Shown here: positions 417-63,586 of the stretch, piece after piece
Numbering within the stretch: the first letter of the stretch is position 1
Layout of the letters: every line of letters starts with the position of its first letter
Assembly: GCA_963797235.1 (NCBI GenBank)
Contig: CAWCOX010000006.1
Span: 191,668-255,667, forward strand
Source of the DNA: an uncultured delta proteobacterium
Lineage (GTDB): Bacteria; Desulfobacterota; Desulfobaccia; Desulfobaccales; 0-14-0-80-60-11
DNA length: 64,000 bases
Reading direction: 5' to 3'
The notes under the pieces: model-generated
What the model saw: the letters and a program-made list of their open reading frames with translations, nothing else
What the model was told of the DNA's origin: nothing
The model's database searches: none
Program-made: the position numbers and the translations under genes

Positions 417-1202
417 TTATATTAGACCGGGGACGGGGGACCGGGGACCGAAGTTGCCCTCCTGTTCACCGTCCCTCCTTCTATGCTTCCGGGTTATCGG
501 ACCGAAGAACGAAGTTTGTTCTCCCGTCTCCCGTCCCCCGTCTCCCGTCCTGTTAAGCCCATGCACCACCCCGTGGCAGCGGCAGGCGGTAGCGATCAGG
601 AGCTTGCCGGCCAGGCCGGTCAGTTCCCGGCCCAGAGCCAGCAATTCCCCGGGGGGATAGCCCCCCACCCCGGGGGCCAGCTGCCGGCTGGGGATGACCC
701 GGGTGGCCCAGCCGGGCAGGTTCACGGCCGCCAGTTCGGCGGACAGGGGCGCCTCCCGGGACTCGCCGCTCACCGGACAGACTGAGTCCGGCTCGGGACA
801 ATCATCCGGGCAGAGATGGGCGGCCCGGCTCAGATAGAGCTGCCCCTCGGGGCCTCGGAACCCGACCTTCGCCAAATGTTCCAGTTCTCCAGGGACCGCC
901 GCGGTCTCCCAGCCGTTCAAGGGGCCGGCCAGGAGCCAGGCAGAGGCCACGTGTACCGGCACCATGGGTATTAACCAATCCCAGGGCGAATTATCCGCCA
1001 GGTTGGCGGCCAGGAAGGCAATGGCCTCCGCCGCCACCCACTCAACCTCAGGGATCGCCAGAGCCCGGGCCGCGGCCAGGGCCTCCGGCCGCTGTTCCAC
1101 CACCAGAAATGAGGCCGCCGCCTCTTGCCGGGCCAGACGCGCCAGGGCCAGGCGCCCGAATTTACCCGCCCCCAGGATGAGGTATCTGGCCATCAGGCTC
1201 AA
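417..1202 (-). CDS. NAD(P)-binding Rossmann-fold protein with Cys-rich C-terminal half
   Basis: ILGAGKFG dinucleotide-binding motif at the N-terminus. Cys clusters [13 protein letters not shown] and ACRCHG. The stop lies 2 nt upstream of the activator ATG. The last ~45 codons run through heptamer arrays, so the true C-terminus is uncertain. Confidence 0.55.
429..449. repeat. tandem heptamer array (GGGGACS)x3
   Basis: GGGGACG GGGGACC GGGGACC. Inverted relative to 522-549. Confidence 0.8.
522..549. repeat. tandem heptamer array (YCCCGTC)x4
   Basis: TCCCGTC TCCCGTC CCCCGTC TCCCGTC. Its reverse complement belongs to the same unit family as 429-449. Confidence 0.85.
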
Positions 1203-3156: not shown

Positions 3157-3838
3157 ATGAGCCAAATCGCCCAAAATTTAGAGGAAGTGCGTCGCCGCAT
3201 GGCCGCCGCGGCCCGGCGGGCCGGCCGGGACCCGGCTGGGGTGCGCCTGGTGGCGGTGAGCAAGACGGTGCCGGTGGAGCTGATCCGCCAGGCCGTGGCC
3301 GCGGGCCAGCGCCTCTTCGGCGAAAATTATTTGCAGGAGGCCCGGGGCAAGATCGAGGCCCTGGGGGAGGCGGCGAGCTGGCATTTTATCGGCCATCTGC
3401 AAAGCAACAAGGCCAAGGCTGCGGTGGGGTTGTTCGAGCTGATCCACGGGGTGGACCGCCTGAAGCTGGCCGAGGCGCTGAATTCTGCCGCGGCCTCCAA
3501 AGGAACCTTACAAAAAATCCTGCATGCAGGTAAACCTGGCGGGCGAGGCCTCGAAATCCGGGACCAGCCTGGAGGCAGCCGCCGAGTTGTGGCGTGAAAT
3601 CAGCCAGTTGCCGCACCTGCGGCTGGTGGGCCTGATGACCATGCCGCCCTTGCTCTCGCCCGAGGCGGTGCGCCCTTATTTCCGGGCCCTGCGGGAGCTG
3701 CGGGAGCGGCTGCAAGACCTGGGCGGGACCCCCTTGCCGGAGTTGTCCATGGGCATGTCCGGCGACTTTGAGGTGGCCATCGAGGCAGGCGCCACCCTGG
3801 TGCGGGTGGGCACCGCCATCTTCGGCAGCCGGCTTTGA
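3157..3838 (+). pseudogene. yggS: YggS-family pyridoxal-phosphate homeostasis protein, apparent frameshift
   Basis: ORFs 3157-3597 and 3524-3838 together give a full YggS (VAVSKT...HFIGHLQSNK then MQVNLAGEASKSG...MGMSGDF). The frames switch near the A6 run at 3512-3517. Confidence 0.8.
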
Positions 3839-3866
3839 CAGTGAGCAGTGAGCAGTGAGCGGTAAG
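3839..3866. repeat. tandem heptamer array (CAGTGAG)x3 plus a degenerate unit
   Basis: CAGTGAG CAGTGAG CAGTGAG CGGTAAG. It starts directly after the yggS stop. Confidence 0.9.
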
Positions 3867-3999
3867 GACCCTTCTGCGTCTTTTCCATAATCCGAACTTT
3901 TCCTCTCTTTCATTTTTTCCCGCTTTAGATATGCTATTATTATCTAAGAGATTAGAAGGACTACGAAAATATGGAGGACAGGCGCAAGCGCCTCCTGCT

Positions 4000-4027
4000 C
4001 CGGTCATCGGTCTCCGGTCTCCGGTCC
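4000..4027. repeat. tandem heptamer array (YCGGTCN)x4
   Basis: CCGGTCA TCGGTCT CCGGTCT CCGGTCC. It ends 13 nt before ATG 4041. Confidence 0.85.
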
Positions 4028-4040
4028 AAAAACGCAAACC

Positions 4041-5048
4041 ATGACCCTCATTAAACCACCGCCCCCCGGCGCCCGGGTGGGCTTCACCACCACCATCCCG
4101 GTGGAAGTGGTGCTGGCCGCGGGCCTGACTCCGGTGGACCTCAATAACCTGTTCATTGTCGAGGCCGGGGCCCGGGCCCGGGTGGCCGAGGCCGAAGCCG
4201 CCGGCTTCCCCCGCACCGTCTGCGCCTGGATCAAGGGCATTTACACCGCCTTGCAGAATCATCCCGAGATCCGCACGGTCATCGTCGCCTGCCAGGGCGA
4301 TTGTTCTTACACTCAGGCCCTGGGGGAGATTTTGCAGGCGCAGGGCCAGGACGTGGTCCACTTTAAGTTCCCTTATCCCCGGAACCGGGAGCAACTGGCC
4401 CAGGAAATTCACGCCCTGATGGCCCGTTTGGGGGCCACTGAGTCCGAGGTGGCCCGGGTTCAGGCCAGGCTGGCGCCTCTGCGGCAAAAGTTGCAACGCC
4501 TGGACCGGCTCACCTGGGAGACCGGCCAGGTCTCCGGCGAGGAAAATTTCCTCTATCTGATCTCCTCCTCGGACTTCGCCTCTGACCTTGAGGCCTACGA
4601 AAACCGGGTGACGAATTTCCTGCGAGACGCGGCCGGCCGTCCGAGCCGGAACTACCCGGTGCGCCTGGGCTTTGCCGGCATTCCGCCCATCTTCACCGAC
4701 CTGTGGGACTACCTGGAGGAACTGGGGGCCGGGGTGGTGTTCCACGAATTTCCCCGGCAGTTCAGCATGCCCCAGGCCGGCCCGGACCTGGCGGAGCAGT
4801 ACCTGCACTACACTTATCCCTACGACATCTTCGGGCGCCTGGCCGACCTGGAGGAGGCGGTGCGCACCCGGCGCCTGGACGGGCTGGTGCACTATACCCA
4901 GAGCTTCTGCTTCCGCCAGATGTTCGACCAGATCATCCGGGAGCGCCTGAATATTCCGGTCCTCACCATCGAAGGGGACCGCCCCTCCCCTCTCGACTCC
5001 CGCACCCGCATGCGCCTGGAGGCCTTCGTCGATGTCCTGCGGCCGTAA
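4041..5048 (+). CDS. 2-hydroxyacyl-CoA dehydratase/benzoyl-CoA reductase (HGD-D) family protein
   Basis: 335 aa with conserved Cys contexts (RTVCAWIKG, ACQGDCS, QSFCFRQ). The family assignment is supported by the adjacent activase-type ATPase. Confidence 0.75.
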   Translation: MTLIKPPPPGARVGFTTTIPVEVVLAAGLTPVDLNNLFIVEAGARARVAEAEAAGFPRTVCAWIKGIYTALQNHPEIRTVIVACQGDCSYTQALGEILQAQGQDVVHFKFPYPRNREQLAQEIHALMARLGATESEVARVQARLAPLRQKLQRLDRLTWETGQVSGEENFLYLISSSDFASDLEAYENRVTNFLRDAAGRPSRNYPVRLGFAGIPPIFTDLWDYLEELGAGVVFHEFPRQFSMPQAGPDLAEQYLHYTYPYDIFGRLADLEEAVRTRRLDGLVHYTQSFCFRQMFDQIIRERLNIPVLTIEGDRPSPLDSRTRMRLEAFVDVLRP

Positions 5049-6934: not shown

Positions 6935-6947
6935 GAATTGCCTCTTT

Positions 6948-6999
6948 AGAGCCGGCGCCCTCGCCGGCTCTAAAACCGCCGGGGGCGGCGGTTCTACAT
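6948..6999. repeat. double-hairpin element, family R1
   Basis: AGAGCCGGCGCCCTCGCCGGCTCT AAAACCGCCGGGGGCGGCGGTTCTACAT. Confidence 0.85.
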
Positions 7000-7007
7000 T
7001 CTTTCCT

Positions 7008-7039
7008 CTGGCGTCTTTGCGCTTCTGCGCCTTGGCGTG
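7008..7039. repeat. tandem octamer array x4
   Basis: CTGGCGTC TTTGCGCT TCTGCGCC TTGGCGTG, followed by AGATA. Homologous to 33821-33861. Confidence 0.7.
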
Positions 7040-7075
7040 AGATACATTCTTTTTTGCATATTCACGGAGATTAGC

Positions 7076-8431
7076 ATGAAAACCGTCCTGATCATCGCCG
7101 GGTCCGACCCGGGGGCCGGCGCCGGCCTGCAGCAAGACCTGAAGGTGGCCACCCTGCTGGGCACTTACGGCCTGACCGTGCCCACCGCCCTCACCGTGCA
7201 GAACAGCCTCGGGGTCCAGGCGGTGCACCCGGTGGCCCCGGAGGTGGTGGCGGCGCAGTTGGATGCAGTGCTCAGCGACTTCCCGGTGGACGCGGTGAAG
7301 GTGGGCTTGCTGGCCACCCAAGAGATCGTCGCCATCGTGGCCTCCCGCCTGCAGAAGCTGGGGCCGGTCCCGGTGGTCCTGGACCCGGTCCTGGCCGCGG
7401 GCGGCGGCTTCCCGTTGCTGGACGAGGCCGGCATCGCCGCCATGCAAGACCAGCTTTTTCCACTGACCACCCTGCTCACTCCCAACGCCCCGGAGGCCGC
7501 CCGGCTCACCGGTCTGAATATCGACAACCCGGCTGACCTGGAAGCGGCGGCCCGGCGCCTGCAGGCTTTGGGGCCTCGCTGGGTCCTGGCCAAGGGCGGT
7601 CACCTGCCGAATGATCCGGTGGACGTCCTGACCGACGGGAACAATTGTTACCACCTCCCCGGGGCGCGCCTGGCGGCCCCACACCAGCACGGCACGGGCT
7701 GTCTGCTGGCCAGCGCCTGCGCTGCCGGTCTGGCTCAAGGATTAGCCCTGCCGGAGGCGGTGAATCAGGCCCGCCGCCTTACCCGGCAGGCCCTCAAATT
7801 CGGCCTGCCTTTGGGCCGGGGCTCCGGGCCGGTGAACCCCTATGCCCCCTTTGCCCGGGAGCTGGCCCGGTTTGCGGTTTTGGCCGATTTGCAGGCGGCC
7901 GCGGCCCGGCTGCAAGCCGAGGACCTCAGCCCCCTGATCCCCGAAGTCATGACCAATTTGGGATTTGCCGTCCCCTACCCCGAAGGGCCGCAGGATGTGG
8001 CGGCCTTCCCGGGCCGCCTGGTGAAGAGCGCTTCCGGGGTGATCATCCCGGCCGCGCCGGCCTTTGGGGCCTCCCGGCACGTCGCCGCCATCATCCTCAC
8101 CGCCCTGGCGACGCACCCGGAACTGCGCAGCGCCATGAACCTCAAATACGTGGCAGGGATCGAAGACCTGGCTCCGCTGCTGCATTTGCGGGTAGCGTGC
8201 TTCGACCGGGCCCAGGAACCCGCAGACGTGAAGAGCCGGGAAGGCGGCACCCTGGCCTGGGGCGTGGCCTCGGTGCTGAAGGCCGGCCGGCCGGCCCCGG
8301 ATATCATTTATGATAAGGGGGATTTAGGCAAGGAAGCCATGCTCCGCCTCCTGGGTCCCAGCCCCATGGCCGTGGCCGAAAAGGCCCTGGCGCTTAAGCA
8401 TGCCTTGCAGGCGGGAGGGAAGCTGGAATAG
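7076..8431 (+). CDS. thiD: bifunctional hydroxymethylpyrimidine/phosphomethylpyrimidine kinase ThiD fused to ThiN-type thiamine-phosphate synthase domain
   Basis: N-terminus: IAGSDPGAGAGLQQD and HGTGC (ThiD). C-terminus: IPEVMTNLG, FGASRHVAAIIL and DLGKEAMLRLLG (ThiN-like). RBS GGAGA lies before ATG 7076. Confidence 0.85.
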   Translation: MKTVLIIAGSDPGAGAGLQQDLKVATLLGTYGLTVPTALTVQNSLGVQAVHPVAPEVVAAQLDAVLSDFPVDAVKVGLLATQEIVAIVASRLQKLGPVPVVLDPVLAAGGGFPLLDEAGIAAMQDQLFPLTTLLTPNAPEAARLTGLNIDNPADLEAAARRLQALGPRWVLAKGGHLPNDPVDVLTDGNNCYHLPGARLAAPHQHGTGCLLASACAAGLAQGLALPEAVNQARRLTRQALKFGLPLGRGSGPVNPYAPFARELARFAVLADLQAAAARLQAEDLSPLIPEVMTNLGFAVPYPEGPQDVAAFPGRLVKSASGVIIPAAPAFGASRHVAAIILTALATHPELRSAMNLKYVAGIEDLAPLLHLRVACFDRAQEPADVKSREGGTLAWGVASVLKAGRPAPDIIYDKGDLGKEAMLRLLGPSPMAVAEKALALKHALQAGGKLE

Positions 8432-8468
8432 GTGAGCAGTGAGCGGTGAGCGGTGAGCAGTGAGCAGT
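8431..8468. repeat. tandem heptamer array (RGTGAGC)x5
   Basis: GGTGAGC AGTGAGC GGTGAGC GGTGAGC AGTGAGC AGTAA. It starts at the last base of the thiD stop. Confidence 0.9.
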
Positions 8469-8571
8469 AAAAGCAAAAGAATGAAGCGCATTCAAAATCG
8501 TCAGAATGACCATTCTCACTAAGAGCAGGTTTTAAAATGTCTTGTAGGTTGAAATATCTGATGGTTTTTCT

Positions 8572-8599
8572 GCTCACTGCTTACTGCTCACTGCTTACC
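8572..8599. repeat. tandem heptamer array (GCTYACY)x4, inverted partner of 8431-8468
   Basis: GCTCACT GCTTACT GCTCACT GCTTACC. Confidence 0.9.
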
Positions 8600-8990
8600 T
8601 CTCCATCATGATCACCTTATACAGGGCCAGGCCCACCAGGAGGTGGCCCACCAGGATGGTGATATCAGAAAAGGTAGTTTGCAGCAGCCAGCCGAAGAAA
8701 TTCACGTCGGGCATTACCTTGACCTGCCCGGCCAGGGTGGCGCTGAGGGAGAAGTCGGCCATCATGATGATGCCCAGGTAGGCCAGGAAGCTGTTGAGGA
8801 TGACGGCCAGGATGGCAGTGTACCGAAAGAGGAACAACGGGCACACCAGCAACACGGCGATCCAGGAGAAGAGGTTGGGCCAGATATCGCTGATCAACGG
8901 GCTCGGCGGGTGAATCCGCAGATGCAGCAGGGCGCCGCTCAACGCCAGGGCCAGCAGGGCCACCCACAGGAGATAACGGATGTTTTTCAT
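8595..8990 (-). CDS. hypothetical integral membrane protein (about 4 TM)
   Basis: 131-aa hydrophobic ORF with normal codon bias. No recognisable motif. Confidence 0.5.
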   Translation of the reverse strand: MKNIRYLLWVALLALALSGALLHLRIHPPSPLISDIWPNLFSWIAVLLVCPLFLFRYTAILAVILNSFLAYLGIIMMADFSLSATLAGQVKVMPDVNFFGWLLQTTFSDITILVGHLLVGLALYKVIMMER

Positions 8991-16255: not shown

Positions 16256-16288
16256 TACCAAAAGCCGACAGAGGAATAAGTTAACCGA

Positions 16289-16325
16289 AACTGACAACTG
16301 ACCACTGACAACTAGGCAACTGACC
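16289..16325. repeat. tandem heptamer array x5 abutting the dnaG ATG
   Basis: AACTGAC AACTGAC CACTGAC AACTAGG CAACTGACC, then ATG 16326. Confidence 0.85.
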
Positions 16326-20082: not shown

Positions 20083-20158
20083 GGGCCCATAGCTCAGCGG
20101 TCAGAGCAACCGGCTCATAACCGGACGGTCCCTGGTTCAAATCCGGGTGGGCCCACCA
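20083..20158 (+). tRNA. tRNA with CAT anticodon (elongator Met or lysidine-modified Ile2)
   Basis: Acceptor stem GGGCCCA/TGGGCCC, D arm AGCTCAGCGGTCAGAGC, anticodon loop CTCATAA, T arm CCTGGTTCAAATCCGGG and an encoded CCA. Confidence 0.9.
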
Positions 20159-22802: not shown

Positions 22803-23170
22803 CGCGGAGCAGGCCAGATGATCGCCGGATGGGCGTCATGCCGCCGGAGGAAAGTCCGAGCTCCACAGGGCAGGGTGCTGGGTAATCCCCAGCGGGGGCG
22901 ACCCCAGGGAAAGTGCCACAGAGACCAGACCGCCGTGGTACGTCCACGGTAAGGGTGAAAAGGTGAGGTAAGAGCTCACCAGCGGCGGGGGCGACCCCGT
23001 CGGCTAGGAAAACCCCACCCGGAGCAAGACCAAATAGGGGAGCGCTTGAGGGTGGCCCGCCTGAAGCTCCCGGGTAGGTTGCTGGAGGCCCCGGGCAACC
23101 GGGGTCCTAGAGGAATGATCATCACCGGGGCAACCCGGGACAGAACTCGGCTTACGGCCTGCTCCGCGTT
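22803..23170 (+). ncRNA. rnpB: RNase P RNA, bacterial type A
   Basis: GGAGGAAAGTCCGAGCTCCACAGGGCAGGGTGCTGGGTAATCCCCAG..AGTGCCACAGAGA... and the 3' ACAGAACTCGGCTTAC (P4 pairing CCGAG/CTCGG). Terminal P1 pairing GGAGCAGGCC/GGCCTGCTCC. Confidence 0.9.
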
Positions 23171-26281: not shown

Positions 26282-26292
26282 AACTTCTTTTA

Positions 26293-26320
26293 ACTGACTA
26301 CTGACTACTGGCTACTGATC
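26293..26320. repeat. tandem heptamer array (ACTGRYY)x4 abutting the formyltransferase ATG
   Basis: ACTGACT ACTGACT ACTGGCT ACTGATC, then ATG 26321. Confidence 0.9.
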
Positions 26321-30698: not shown

Positions 30699-30773
30699 GC
30701 GAAGGGGTTAAAAGGGAAAATGATCCAAAGGTTAACAAGTTTTTACCCTTTCGCCTGTTCCCCTTTTTGCCCC
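30699..30773. repeat. inverted pair of A/G-rich and T/C-rich short-repeat tracts
   Basis: GCGAAGGGGTTAAAAGGGAAAA ... TTTTACCCTTTCGCCTGTTCCCCTTTTTGCCCC. Confidence 0.6.
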
Positions 30774-30788
30774 TGACTTAATGAAGAA

Positions 30789-31430
30789 ATGAAAATCATC
30801 CATGCTGCCCGGGCTGCTGAAAGAGCCCCGATATTACTGCCCACCTACGACGACTGTCTGGCCTTGATGGACGTCCACGCCATGCTGGACAACATCCGGG
30901 AGCACTCCTTCCGGGTGATGCAGGTGGCCGACCGGCTGGGCCAGGCCCTGGCCGCGGCGGGCCTGGTGCTGCATCTGCCCCTGATCAGCACCGGGGCATT
31001 GCTCCATGACCTGGGCAAGACCGCCTGCCTGGGCACGACCGAAAATCACGCCCAATTGGGCGCCGACATCCTGGCCTCCCTGGGCTTCCCGGAACTGGCC
31101 CAGGTGGTTAAAGAGCACGTGCGTCTGGAAGAGGAAATTAACGACCCCCGGCCGCTGCGGGAGTCCGAGGTGGTCAATTACGCCGACAAGCGGGTGCTCC
31201 ACACCCAGGTGGTCACCCTGGCGGAGCGCTTCGCCGACCTCCAGGTGCGCTACGGCCGGACGCCTGCGGCCCGAGGGCGCATCGCCGCCATGGAGATCCA
31301 GACCCAGGCCCTGGAGGAAAAGCTGTTTGCGCCCTTAAACCTTGGTCCCCTGGACCTGCTCCGGGAAAACAGCTATCAGCCGTCAGCTTTCCGCGGTCAG
31401 CCGGAATCGGCCAAGGGCGAAGGCCGCTAA
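30789..31430 (+). CDS. HD domain-containing phosphohydrolase
   Basis: HSFRV...GALLHDLGK...NYADKR (H-HD-D pattern). Confidence 0.7.
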   Translation: MKIIHAARAAERAPILLPTYDDCLALMDVHAMLDNIREHSFRVMQVADRLGQALAAAGLVLHLPLISTGALLHDLGKTACLGTTENHAQLGADILASLGFPELAQVVKEHVRLEEEINDPRPLRESEVVNYADKRVLHTQVVTLAERFADLQVRYGRTPAARGRIAAMEIQTQALEEKLFAPLNLGPLDLLRENSYQPSAFRGQPESAKGEGR

Positions 31431-31534
31431 ATGGGGATAGGATAAGCATTATTAAAGAACAGCCGAAGATAGCTGTTCTGCAATTGCTTTCACTTTGCCT
31501 GAAGAAATACCGTTCCTACGGAATTCTGTCTTGT

Positions 31535-31562
31535 GCTGAAAGCTGAAAGCTGACCGCTGAAA
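31535..31562. repeat. tandem heptamer array (GCTGAMM)x4
   Basis: GCTGAAA GCTGAAA GCTGACC GCTGAAA. Confidence 0.9.
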
Positions 31563-31586
31563 GCGATTTCTTAACCGGAGGGAAGC

Positions 31587-36176: not shown

Positions 36177-36280
36177 TGAAAATCTCCCCTCCCCCCGTTT
36201 TGCAAAGGGAGGGGTTAAAGTCCCCCTTTGAAAAAGGGGGATTTAGGGGGATTTGAAGTTTTCGCGCTAAAGTCTGCGGC
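36177..36280. repeat. ~100-bp composite palindromic element, family R4 (copy A)
   Basis: GAAAATCTCCCCTCCCCCCGTTTTGCAAAGGGAGGGG..TCCCCCTTTGAAAAAGGGGGATTTAGGGGGATTTGAAGTTTTCGCGCTAAAGTCTGCGGC. Confidence 0.9.
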
Positions 36281-36317
36281 AACCGGCATAGTAGCGCCGG
36301 TCTCCGGCCAGTGAAAG

Positions 36318-36373
36318 ACCACAGGCTGGAAGCCTGTGCCACTATGATTTGGGGCGACCCCGCTGGGTCGCCC
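36318..36373. repeat. REP-like hairpins (R2 then R3)
   Basis: ACCACAGGCTGGAAGCCTGTGCCACT, then GGGGCGACCCCGCTGGGTCGCCC followed by a T-rich run. Confidence 0.8.
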
Positions 36374-37430: not shown

Positions 37431-37535
37431 GAAAATCCCCCCTGCCCCCCTTTGTCAAAGGGGGGGTCCAAAAAGTCCCCCTTTGAAAAAGGGGGATTTA
37501 GGGGGATTTGAAGTTTTCACGCTAACGTCTGCGGC
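37431..37535. repeat. ~100-bp composite palindromic element, family R4 (copy B, same orientation as A)
   Basis: GAAAATCCCCCCTGCCCCCCTTTGTCAAAGGGGGGG..TCCCCCTTTGAAAAAGGGGGATTTAGGGGGATTTGAAGTTTTCACGCTAACGTCTGCGGC. Confidence 0.9.
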
Positions 37536-54239: not shown

Positions 54240-54307
54240 GTCCGCCCATTACCGCGCTAAGCACCTTACCACTTTTCATACGGGTGCGTCAATGCCGCGG
54301 AGTCTTA

Positions 54308-54342
54308 AGTTTCGAGTTTCGAGTTTTGACTTTTCAGTTTGG
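54308..54342. repeat. tandem heptamer array x5
   Basis: AGTTTCG AGTTTCG AGTTTTG ACTTTTC AGTTTGG, in the lolC-lolD spacer. Confidence 0.85.
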
Positions 54343-54386
54343 TTGACGGCCCAACCCTGCACCAACTGCAAAACCGCTGATCGTGC

Positions 54387-54410
54387 AACTGACTAGGCCT
54401 GGCTACTACT
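54387..54410. repeat. degenerate ACTGACT-family array
   Basis: AACTGAC TAGGCCT GGCTACT ACT, overlapping the lolC stop. Confidence 0.45.
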
Positions 54411-62057: not shown

Positions 62058-62445
62058 GGCCGAACTGAGCCTCACCCTGCTGGGCGACCGGGCCATGGCC
62101 CGCCTCAACCGGGAGACCTTCGGCCGCCGGGGTCCCACCAACGTCATCTCCTTCCCTATGGATGGAGAACAGGCGCCCTCGCCGGTTCATTTACAGCCGA
62201 GGGCGGCTGTTCCACATCCCTCGCCCCTCTTGGGCGAAGTGGCCATCTCCATCGAAACCACCCGCCGCCAGGCCAAAGAATTCGGCTGGCCCTGGCAGGA
62301 ACTCTTCGACTTTTTCCTCATTCACGGTATATTACATCTGATGGGCTACGACCACGGCGCCCCCGGGGAAGAAACGGCCATGACCGCCAAAACCTGGGAG
62401 CTGATGAAACTGCTGCATCCCAAAATAGTAGTCAGTGGCCAGTAG
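61957..62445 (+). CDS. ybeY: rRNA maturation endoribonuclease YbeY (contains an in-frame repeat insertion)
   Basis: GPTNVISFP and HGILHLMGYDH. About 16 extra residues (QAPSPVHLQPRAAVPHP) are encoded by a REP-like element. Confidence 0.9.
   Translation: MKIWISNRQRKTAINPERVRKRAGKILSALGWSEAELSLTLLGDRAMARLNRETFGRRGPTNVISFPMDGEQAPSPVHLQPRAAVPHPSPLLGEVAISIETTRRQAKEFGWPWQELFDFFLIHGILHLMGYDHGAPGEETAMTAKTWELMKLLHPKIVVSGQ
62171..62217. repeat. degenerate family R1 element embedded in frame in ybeY
   Basis: AGGCGCCCTCGCCGGTTCATTTACAGCCGAGGGCGGCTGTTCCACAT aligns with 6952-6999. Confidence 0.7.
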
Positions 62446-62459
62446 TCAGTTGCCAGTAA
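62425..62459. repeat. tandem heptamer array x5 containing the ybeY stop codon
   Basis: ATAGTAG TCAGTGG CCAGTAG TCAGTTG CCAGTAA. It shares AGTGGCCAGTAGTCAGT with 2113-2147. Confidence 0.85.
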
Positions 62460-62521
62460 AAGCTTTCTTAAACTGTGAGGTTGCATTTGAAAATGCAGCC
62501 GATAGCTTTACCGCGAAAAAA

Positions 62522-62606
62522 CAAAATCCCCCTGCCCCCCTTTTTCAAAGGGGGACTTAAACCCCCCTTTGAAAAAGGGGGGCAGGGGGGATTTGAAATT
62601 TGCTTG
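62522..62606. repeat. composite palindromic element, family R4 (copy C)
   Basis: CAAAATCCCCCTGCCCCCCTTTTTCAAAGGGGGACTTAAACCCCCCTTTGAAAAAGGGGGGCAGGGGGGATTTGAAATTTGC. Confidence 0.85.
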
Positions 62607-62635
62607 ACTTATTAGTTCGCCAGCCGAAGATCAAA

Positions 62636-62663
62636 GCTGACCACTGGCTACTGACTACTGAAA
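62636..62663. repeat. tandem heptamer array x4, inverted relative to 62425-62459
   Basis: GCTGACC ACTGGCT ACTGACT ACTGAAA, followed by RBS GGAGA for pdxJ. Confidence 0.85.
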
Positions 62664-63392: not shown

Positions 63393-63400
63393 ATTTTCAT

Positions 63401-63586
63401 AGTGGCACAGGCTTCCAGCCTGTGTGTCTCACAGGCCGGAGGCCTGTGCCACTAAGATTGCAGCTCCATGGTGGGGCGGGCGTCTCGCCCGCCATCGGTG
63501 TAGGGTGCGCACTGCGCACCATTATTCAACGACCGGTCGCACAGGCGTCTCGCCTGTTTACTAATAGAAGGTGCGCAGTGCGCACC
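63401..63586. repeat. cluster of at least five REP-like hairpins (R2 double hairpin plus four R3-type)
   Basis: AGTGGCACAGGCTTCCAGCCTGTGTGTCTCACAGGCCGGAGGCCTGTGCCACT; GGTGGGGCGGGCGTCTCGCCCGCCAT; GTAGGGTGCGCACTGCGCACC; GCACAGGCGTCTCGCCTGT; GGTGCGCAGTGCGCACC. Confidence 0.85.

Follow-up and report, generated by a model that had tools for sequence, protein, structure and literature searches.

A convergent pair of heptamer arrays on the stop codons of thiDN and a membrane-protein gene in an uncultured delta proteobacterium: a candidate gene-end RNA hairpin

In the genome of an uncultured delta proteobacterium of the Desulfobaccales, two convergent genes, thiDN and a gene coding for a membrane protein, are separated by a pair of tandem heptamer arrays of opposite orientation. 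Each array lies on the stop codon of its own gene and, as RNA, the two are predicted to pair into a 31-bp helix that closes the whole gap. The locus belongs to a stretch of 64,000 nucleotides (assembly GCA_963797235.1, contig CAWCOX010000006.1, positions 191,668 to 255,667 of the forward strand), which we refer to as the window and whose first letter is position 1 throughout. Convergent pairs of heptamer arrays have already been reported in Xanthomonas and Geobacter, and the design is thus of a known kind. We read the locus as a convergent pair of slippage-prone arrays, one representative of a widespread class found at gene boundaries. Its most likely role would be that of an RNA hairpin at the gene ends, of the type of the repetitive extragenic palindromic (REP) elements, a reading that we favour tentatively and to which we give somewhat less than an even chance.

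The array pair between thiDN and the membrane-protein gene

The genes, arrays and spacer of the locus are the following.

7076 to 8431, plus strand: thiDN, a ThiD-ThiN fusion gene (hydroxymethylpyrimidine kinase and thiamine-phosphate synthase ThiN), assigned by Pfam
8431 to 8468, plus strand: left heptamer array, (GTGAGCR) x5.3, from the sequence and Tandem Repeats Finder
8469 to 8571, no strand: AT-rich spacer, 103 nt, 34% GC against 62% for the window
8570 to 8599, minus strand: right heptamer array, (GTRAGCA) x4, from the sequence and Tandem Repeats Finder
8595 to 8990, minus strand: gene for a hydrophobic membrane protein of 131 aa with about four predicted membrane segments

The product of thiDN matches the Pfam families Phos_pyr_kin (2.5e-81) and ThiN (2.2e-51), and the 131-aa membrane protein matched no Pfam family. 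The stop codon of thiDN is a TAG (8429-8431) whose final G doubles as base 1 of the left array, just as an earlier reading of this DNA (the original prediction) had placed it. Five RGTGAGC units fill 8431-8465 and the array extends on to 8468 (Tandem Repeats Finder: 8432-8468, period 7, 5.3 copies, 93% matches), with a TGA present in each of the three frames. Read on the plus strand, the right array is GCTYACY x4 (8572-8599; Tandem Repeats Finder: 8570-8598, period 14, 2.1 copies, 100%). It had been described as ending 4 nt past the stop of the minus-strand gene. This stop (a TAA, seen as TTA at 8595-8597) is actually inside the outermost unit and the array enters the open reading frame (ORF) by 2 nt, so that the right array overlaps the stop of the membrane-protein gene instead of trailing behind it. 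Both arrays therefore read 5'-GTRAGCR-3' inward from their own gene, each on that gene's stop codon. The AT-rich spacer of 103 nt claimed between the convergent genes is borne out. Its ends, AGTAAAAGCAAAAGA ... GATGGTTTTTC, are common to the window and two close relatives, and in the middle both relatives differ from the window by a 64-nt indel.

As a side observation, the inner end of the G-rich array (8466-8485) decays into in-phase A-rich units, CAGTAAA AGCAAAA GA, which closely resemble CAGTAAAGGCAAAAGCAAAGATAG in the corresponding position of unrelated phage contigs (L165, around 8192-8220, and L199).

The predicted helix

The two arms of the helix in the predicted plus-strand RNA fold are slightly displaced with respect to the arrays.

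8430 to 8460, plus strand: 5' arm of the 31-bp helix, partner of 8570-8600
8570 to 8600, plus strand: 3' arm of the 31-bp helix

As DNA these arms are 87% complementary over 31 nt, with 4 mismatches; the opposed orientation of the arrays that had been claimed is correct, whereas their perfect complementarity is not. The plus-strand RNA folds into an uninterrupted 31-bp helix (27 Watson-Crick and 4 G.U pairs, -85.3 kcal/mol, z -9.5). Since all 31 positions pair, the four DNA mismatches are all G.U on that strand. On the minus strand the predicted stem is interrupted (-61.2 kcal/mol, z -5.9). Folding thus agrees with the original prediction in giving a long stem that encloses the spacer on both strands; the interruption that had been expected of the stem on either transcript is seen in the minus-strand RNA only. 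The loop between the arms has 109 nt and, with the base of the helix on both stop codons, exactly the non-coding interval is enclosed.

Heptamer arrays across the window

With a strict criterion we found 11 period-7 arrays in the window, against a mean of 0.5 and a maximum of 2 in first-order Markov shuffles, i.e., a roughly 20-fold excess, and Tandem Repeats Finder added weaker ones. Every array is on ORF ends or between ORFs, and the flanking genes are housekeeping ones (thiDN, YggS-like, hgdD-like, ybeY, pdxJ, dnaG, formyltransferase, ddl, tatD, mutS2 and lolCD-like). The arrays contain 3.6-5.7 units each and belong to at least six heptamer types (CAGTGAG, CAGTRGY, GAGTTTC, CAGCNNN, GACCGGG and GACGGGA). 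When they are read inward from the adjacent gene boundary, G exceeds C in 14 of the 16 (p 0.004): on the sense strand, units of CAGT or G-rich type come right after stops and units of ACTG or C-rich type right before starts. G-tracts are present only in the GACGGGA-type arrays at 425-550. Besides the thiDN locus, the following pairs and single arrays were found.

425 to 550, minus strand: opposed pair (GACCGGG)n at 425-451 and (TCTCCCG)n at 519-550, between tandem minus-strand genes; imperfect complementarity, z -3.0
2108 to 2230, no strand: two arrays, 2108-2146 and 2205-2230, between divergent genes; mutually non-complementary
3837 to 4028, plus strand: (CAGTGAG)3 directly past a stop codon and (CTCCGGT)4 ahead of a start codon (3837/3998); mutually non-complementary
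16288 to 16325, plus strand: single array (AACTGAC)n reaching the ATG of dnaG, without Shine-Dalgarno sequence
26292 to 26320, plus strand: single array (ACTGACT)n reaching the ATG of the formyltransferase gene, without Shine-Dalgarno sequence
31370 to 31564, plus strand: opposed pair (CAGCNNN)n at 31370-31401 and (GCTGAAA)n at 31533-31564, from an HD-domain gene to ddl; z -5.2
54305 to 54410, minus strand: two degenerate arrays (54305/54384), from an FtsX-like permease gene to an ABC ATPase gene; mutually non-complementary
62425 to 62661, plus strand: opposed pair (CAGTRGY)n at 62425-62458 and (RCYACTG)n at 62637-62661, from ybeY to pdxJ

The last of these pairs shows good pairing and encloses 178 nt (-130 kcal/mol, z -12.8). 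Its first array overlaps the last six codons and the stop of ybeY, and the second ends at the Shine-Dalgarno sequence of pdxJ. The same design had been thought to recur at 429-549, 30699-30773 and 62425-62663. The first and the last correspond to real pairs (425-451/519-550 and 62425-62458/62637-62661); no heptamer array is present in the segment 30699-30773, whose fold does not stand out from its shuffles (z -0.8), and the complementary pair at 31370-31401/31533-31564 had been overlooked. The paired arrangement is therefore found elsewhere, with further opposed pairs in the window and, as described below, in relatives and metagenomes. Re-pairing the seven left arrays of the window with the seven right ones gave a measure of how well true partners match: four of the seven pairs reach a duplex energy of -39 kcal/mol or lower (exact permutation p 0.0095), and the summed duplex energy of the seven also stands out against random re-pairing (p 0.02).

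Some other features of the window are found near these arrays. The array at 2205-2230 (AACTCGR) reaches the start codon of tatD, which has no Shine-Dalgarno sequence. The array (CAGTGAG)3 starts directly past the stop of a YggS-like gene (Ala_racemase_N, 3157-3838) that is split over two overlapping frames, with ORF 3157-3597 covering profile positions 2-115 and ORF 3524-3838 positions 125-218; the split may be due to a frameshift, a pseudogene or an assembly error. An intergenic repeat built on the palindrome CCCCCTTTGAAAAAGGGGG followed by ATTTAGGGGGATTTGAAGTTTTC is present at 36222-36285, 37475-37535 and 62522-62595, i.e., as two near-identical copies about 1.25 kb apart and as a version with 33-nt arms (94% complementary) within the ybeY-pdxJ spacer. 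A second family of REP-like palindromes, GGCACAGGC...GCCTGTGCC, lies just past gene ends in the window (63397-63457 and 36321-36348) and also in two relatives (L002, around 855-880, and L009, around 4455-4480). Ordinary RNA genes are represented by a class A RNase P RNA (22806-23169, 310 bits) and a tRNA-Met (20083-20158).

The same heptamers in metagenomic and viral contigs

An exact-pattern scan of metagenomes with (GTGAGCR)x3.3 gave at least 120 stretches. We analysed 80 loci among the matches listed, to which all counts for this heptamer refer. Their GC content goes from 35 to 72%, indicating that they stem from many taxa. Of 78 cases, 23 have an in-phase (YGCTYAC)n within 300 nt downstream, whereas none of 74 has one upstream (p 2e-7). 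The sole order among the matches listed is therefore 5'-(GTGAGCR)n ... (YGCTYAC)n-3', which is identical read from either strand. The spacers of these pairs measure 11-178 nt, so that many of them are plain long hairpins. T-runs follow the 3' arm in 8 of the 23 pairs (p 3e-5) and A-runs precede the 5' arm in 6 (p 0.002), in both cases against a background of 6%. This enrichment ties part of the class to transcript ends and, judged by their sequence, some of its members look like terminators. Unpaired arrays with both flanks available also keep to gene ends: the median distance to the ORF boundary is 0 nt from their 5' end but 77 nt from their 3' end, and a boundary is no more than 30 nt away from the 5' end in 20 of 36 and from the 3' end in 7 of 36. 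The ORF often ends on the array's own TGA, at offsets of +1, +8, +15 and +22, and at least 20 loci have an opposite-strand gene whose start codon lies 3-35 nt from the array.

Viral contigs scanned with (CAGTRGY)x3.5 yielded 98 stretches, with an opposed array downstream in 40 of 108 cases and upstream in 5 of 107. Two contigs, L149 (10 kb) and L160 (7.2 kb), have opposed arrays at nearly every gene junction (CAGTGGY ... RCCACTG or ATTACTG). The second codes for a portal and a Mu F-like protein and is thus a genuine phage. A short loop, AAAGGCAAAA / TTTTGCCTTT, recurs across many of the viral array hairpins.

Close and distant relatives

In a genome scan with ThiDN, the window fell among Desulfobaccales-like metagenome-assembled genomes. 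Two of these relatives, L001 and L008, are close, with 92.5-92.9% nucleotide identity to the thiDN of the window (88.5-89% at third codon positions). Both retain the arrays and the spacer ends, with 4/3 units in place of the 5/4 of the window, and folding predicts the long stem for the window as well as for these two independent assemblies. In L001 (3283-3312) the thiDN stop has been lost, and the ORF gains seven codons (RVSSEQ plus stop) and ends on a TAA of the array. The gap 5' of thiDN is wholly different in the three genomes, although the flanking genes are about 93% identical: it contains hairpins in the window (6935-7075), (AGTTTCG)5 in L001 (1805-1930) and unrelated sequence in L008 (2895-3030). 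The L001 array is directly past a stop, and at that place L002 and L004 have (CAGTTTT)n and (CGGTTTT)n. Such complete replacement among close genomes indicates that intergenic cassettes are swapped very fast in this clade. One more opposed pair, (CTGTTTT)n ... (AAAACAG)n, was found in L006. Within the clade, arrays are thus frequent and undergo rapid turnover, and their unit number varies.

Distant relatives that have no arrays in the thiDN gap carry G/C-rich palindromic hairpins beside each stop instead, indicating that the slot past the stop habitually holds structure-forming sequence. In L002-L004 and L010 the gap is occupied by G/C palindromes that resemble the CCCCCTTTGAAAAAGGGGG element.

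The G.U pairs of the plus-strand helix were considered as a pointer to the functional strand and rejected: L001 folds better on the minus strand and L008 about equally on both. An apparent G.U strand bias in the metagenome set was an artefact of the search pattern.

Comparison with described repeats

As summarised in a later paper (PMC4679880), earlier studies had shown that, among the long simple repeats of bacteria, heptamers are the commonest, their abundance being put down to polymerase slippage (Mrazek, 2007). The best described case is that of the GGGAATC / GGGGAYT arrays of Xanthomonas and Nostoc (Rehm et al., 2015; PMC4692102). They form G-quadruplexes in vitro, and a G-quadruplex role has been proposed for them. 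Each Xanthomonas genome contains 70-75 convergent inverted array pairs, and array length varies between species at a preserved type of site (PMC4692102). The resemblance to the window is extensive. In both there are tandem 7-nt units, over-represented and in at least three copies, at ORF ends or in non-coding DNA, with about four units preferred and housekeeping genes as neighbours. The G-rich strand is the coding one after stops and the non-coding one before starts (14 of 16 arrays in the window), convergent inverted pairs have one array per strand, and unit number varies among relatives at a site that is kept (5/4 against 4/3). However, GTGAGCR lacks any run of three G, so that no G-quadruplex is possible, and where Xanthomonas and Nostoc genomes have a single dominant heptamer the genome of the window has at least six.

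Closer in phylogeny is the deltaproteobacterium Geobacter metallireducens (Aklujkar et al., 2009; PMC2700814), in which 49 copies of a four-unit GGACCGG element, some of them intragenic, and tandem-repeat sites in 24 + 21 + 8 pairs, the two members on opposite strands and a variable distance apart, have been described. The authors read the pairs as sites of a global regulator (IHF/HU), a guess offered without evidence, and proposed no RNA-level reading (PMC2700814). Again there are 3-5 tandem units of 7-8 nt on opposite strands of intergenic regions, in Geobacter, e.g., between proB and proA. This likeness is drawn from the published description, with sequence compared only for the array at 425-451 of the window, whose GACCGGG is a heptamer of the GGACCGG family.

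In marine Beggiatoaceae, cyanobacteria and Bacteroidetes, TAACTGA arrays have been found directly 5' of starts without Shine-Dalgarno sequence (MacGregor, 2015; PMC4679880), and in Nostoc heptamer repeats lie near start codons, and deletion of those near recF and recO is reported to have regulatory effects (bioRxiv 10.1101/2022.06.06.494920). The AACTGAC and ACTGACT arrays before dnaG and the formyltransferase gene, also without Shine-Dalgarno sequence, are one base off the AACTGAT unit of those repeats. Nearly all of the latter are single direct arrays, with one indirect repeat in Beggiatoaceae, whereas the arrays at the thiDN locus are a convergent pair on stop codons. Our literature search found no bacterial report of a GTGAGCA array.

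REP elements and bacterial interspersed mosaic elements (BIMEs) of enterobacteria are likewise extragenic repeats that form stems at gene ends and frequently occur as inverted pairs, and REP sequences are transcribed. They stabilise the upstream mRNA, and many can stall ribosomes owing to their proximity to the stop codon (PMC12306157). The REP unit is an imperfect palindrome of 20-40 nt with one conserved sequence, whereas each arm of the locus described here is a direct heptamer array; in this class the arms are separated by as much as about 180 nt and their sequence varies by locus. True REP-like palindromes exist elsewhere in the window.

A gene-end RNA hairpin and its alternatives

The reading that we favour takes any transcript spanning the whole gap as carrying both arrays, which would zip into the 31-bp helix with its base on the two stop codons and the non-coding interval inside. 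The hairpin would arise on transcripts that read through, where it may act as a barrier to 3' exonucleases, as a substrate of a double-strand-specific RNase, or as both. The outcome would be a defined or stabilised 3' end and a limit on antisense read-through into the neighbouring gene. As the helix begins at the stop codon, a terminating ribosome would need to melt its base. The REP precedent of mRNA stabilisation and ribosome stalling (PMC12306157) provides a functional model, and by this analogy an RNA-stability element is plausible. We infer that the helix forms in vivo and acts in this way because the z-scores are strong on both strands, the stem is kept in two relatives and partner arrays match above chance. 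The configurations also point to it (23 of 78 against 0 of 74 among the GTGAGCR matches listed, and 40 against 5 in viral contigs), as do the enrichment of T- and A-runs and the abutment on ORF ends in the former set, the phage and viral contigs with opposed arrays at nearly every junction, and the structured slot past the stops in relatives.

Several results weigh against it. Intergenic identity among the three close genomes is 83-96%, not above that of third codon positions, and five relatives at 77-80% ThiDN identity keep the gene pair and have no heptamer arrays, so that purifying selection is not shown. No compensatory double substitutions were seen in the three close sequences, in which the array register is ambiguous. 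Which strand folds better varies between the three orthologs and, in tandem-gene pairs, does not follow the sense strand. Three of the seven window pairs are not complementary, unpaired arrays make up the majority of the GTGAGCR matches listed (55 of 78), and arm lengths show no positive correlation across the 23 listed pairs (rho -0.38). At the locus itself, no U-tract is found beyond either arm (TCTCCATC on the plus strand, CTATTCC on the minus strand), and a terminator scan gave 0 sites, the loop of 109 nt not being short. Finally, should transcription of both genes end in the spacer, the two arms would never share an RNA and the helix could not form.

The main rival explanation is that the arrays have no dedicated function and are replication-slippage repeats, the heptamer being a favoured unit in many bacteria. 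We regard this as possible, although on the whole doubtful. The matching of the arms would come from template switching in a hairpin or from duplication, and position and orientation would reflect what gene ends tolerate: (GTGAGCA)n, for example, gives TGA in three frames past a stop, and its complement, when placed ahead of a start, contains no start codon or Shine-Dalgarno-like G-runs. Slippage fits the turnover and the lack of conservation well, including the change from 5/4 to 4/3 units between genomes 93% identical, identity no higher than the synonymous rate, distant relatives without arrays, the wholesale replacement of the neighbouring intergenic region and the uncorrelated arm lengths. 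It also fits the many ORFs that end on a TGA of the array and the L001 thiDN, which runs seven codons into it, and the published link of heptamer abundance to polymerase slippage, in the summary cited above, points the same way. However, slippage by itself gives no reason to expect the exclusive configuration (23:0 among the matches listed; 40:5), the T- and A-runs at the flanks, the recurrence of one heptamer in contigs of 35-72% GC, or a compact phage genome with arrays at almost every junction. Stop codons in all frames were tried as the cause of the orientation and rejected as such: they work for GTGAGCA and CAGTAGT and fail for CAGTTTT, CGGTTTT, AGTTTCG and GACGGGA.

A more speculative reading, and in our view an unlikely one, is an orientation-coded mark of gene boundaries, about four units long and G-rich inward, that is read by a conserved trans-acting factor or written by a conserved DNA or RNA transaction. 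Such a mark would be common to Desulfobacterota, Xanthomonas, cyanobacteria, sulfur bacteria and some phages, with stem and G-quadruplex formation secondary, a generalisation that we hold no more firmly. It is permitted because heptamers that cannot form a G-quadruplex obey the published rules of position, orientation and length, because only one of the two possible inverted configurations is seen for GTGAGCR among the matches listed, and because one phage contig and a second viral contig have arrays at nearly all of their gene junctions.

The third option is that the units are periodic protein-binding sites in a 7-nt register, the pairing of partners being incidental, and this we consider more unlikely still. 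The protein could be a binder of RNA or single-stranded DNA (a ring or multimer like HutP or TRAP, S1, or a cold-shock protein) or one of duplex DNA such as IHF/HU. Past stop codons the sense strand frequently has NAG every 7 nt, which is the register recognised by HutP. The unpaired arrays, more numerous than the paired ones and under the same rule of position and orientation, are accounted for in this way, and so are the typical length of about four units (roughly 28 nt) here, in Xanthomonas and in Geobacter, and the arrays directly 5' of starts without Shine-Dalgarno sequence (dnaG, formyltransferase and many metagenomic loci), along the lines of the proposal for the Beggiatoaceae TAACTGA repeats. 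It leaves unexplained why partners match beyond chance, and at least six unrelated heptamers in one genome are hard to square with one sequence-specific reader.

The original prediction had called the element a bidirectional terminator. An intrinsic terminator has a G+C-rich stem, a short loop (about 3-10 nt) and a U-tract directly 3', with an A-tract 5' when it also serves the opposite strand. The locus shares with such elements its place between convergent stop codons and a symmetric hairpin usable on both strands, and it is part of a class of GTGAGCR hairpins in which there are short loops and flanking A- and T-runs. However, it differs in its 109-nt loop, the lack of flanking A- and U-tracts (the helix is flanked on the plus strand by GGAATAG 5' and TCTCCATC 3') and the empty terminator scan. 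Runs of T and A at the locus are confined to the loop, where weak AU-rich hairpins followed by U-rich runs are found just inside the arrays on both strands, with stems too weak to count. A canonical bidirectional Rho-independent terminator of the two convergent genes is thus very improbable. Arrays, position and design stand with the small corrections given above, and the stem is supported; the label of a canonical terminator does not fit.

A reading in which the function resides in the spacer, with the arrays as its terminal inverted repeats, as in a small RNA gene, a miniature mobile element or an invertible segment, is highly improbable as well: inverted repeats do bracket an AT-rich segment with ends common to three genomes, but a scan of 8300-8750 found no promoter or terminator consensus, Rfam 15 gave nothing relevant to the locus (gathering scores over the whole window; E <= 1 at 8380-8650, where the only match was a chance microRNA of 17 bits against a threshold of 80), conservation is not above the neutral rate and the 64-nt indel falls in mid-spacer. 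The proposal of a small RNA encoded there is left without support on these same grounds. Three specific candidates were also rejected: a coding spacer (the indel disrupts its sole ORF, 8482-8523, 13 codons, in L001 and L008), a miniature inverted-repeat transposable element (no target-site duplication or other direct repeat was seen at the outer ends, and other pairs, of the window as well as of metagenomes, enclose spacers of 11-178 nt whose sequences are unrelated) and an invertible DNA switch (no promoter-like site, and a spacer collinear and in identical orientation in the three genomes; a recombinase was not searched for).

Significance

Heptamers at gene boundaries have been reported before, as cyanobacterial repeats, TAACTGA of Beggiatoaceae, GGGAATC of Xanthomonas and the paired sites of Geobacter. 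What the lineage of the window contributes is many different heptamers, some of them incapable of forming a G-quadruplex, under the same rules, which weakens the published explanation by G-quadruplexes and argues that it does not hold in general. The rules point to something linked with transcript or gene ends. With arrays on two stop codons and a predicted 31-bp helix closing the gap, the thiDN locus is a clean test case for a role in RNA ends or processing, and its main value is comparative. If this reading is true, heptamer arrays would take their place beside REP elements and terminators as an alternative built from repeats, one that current genome annotation overlooks.

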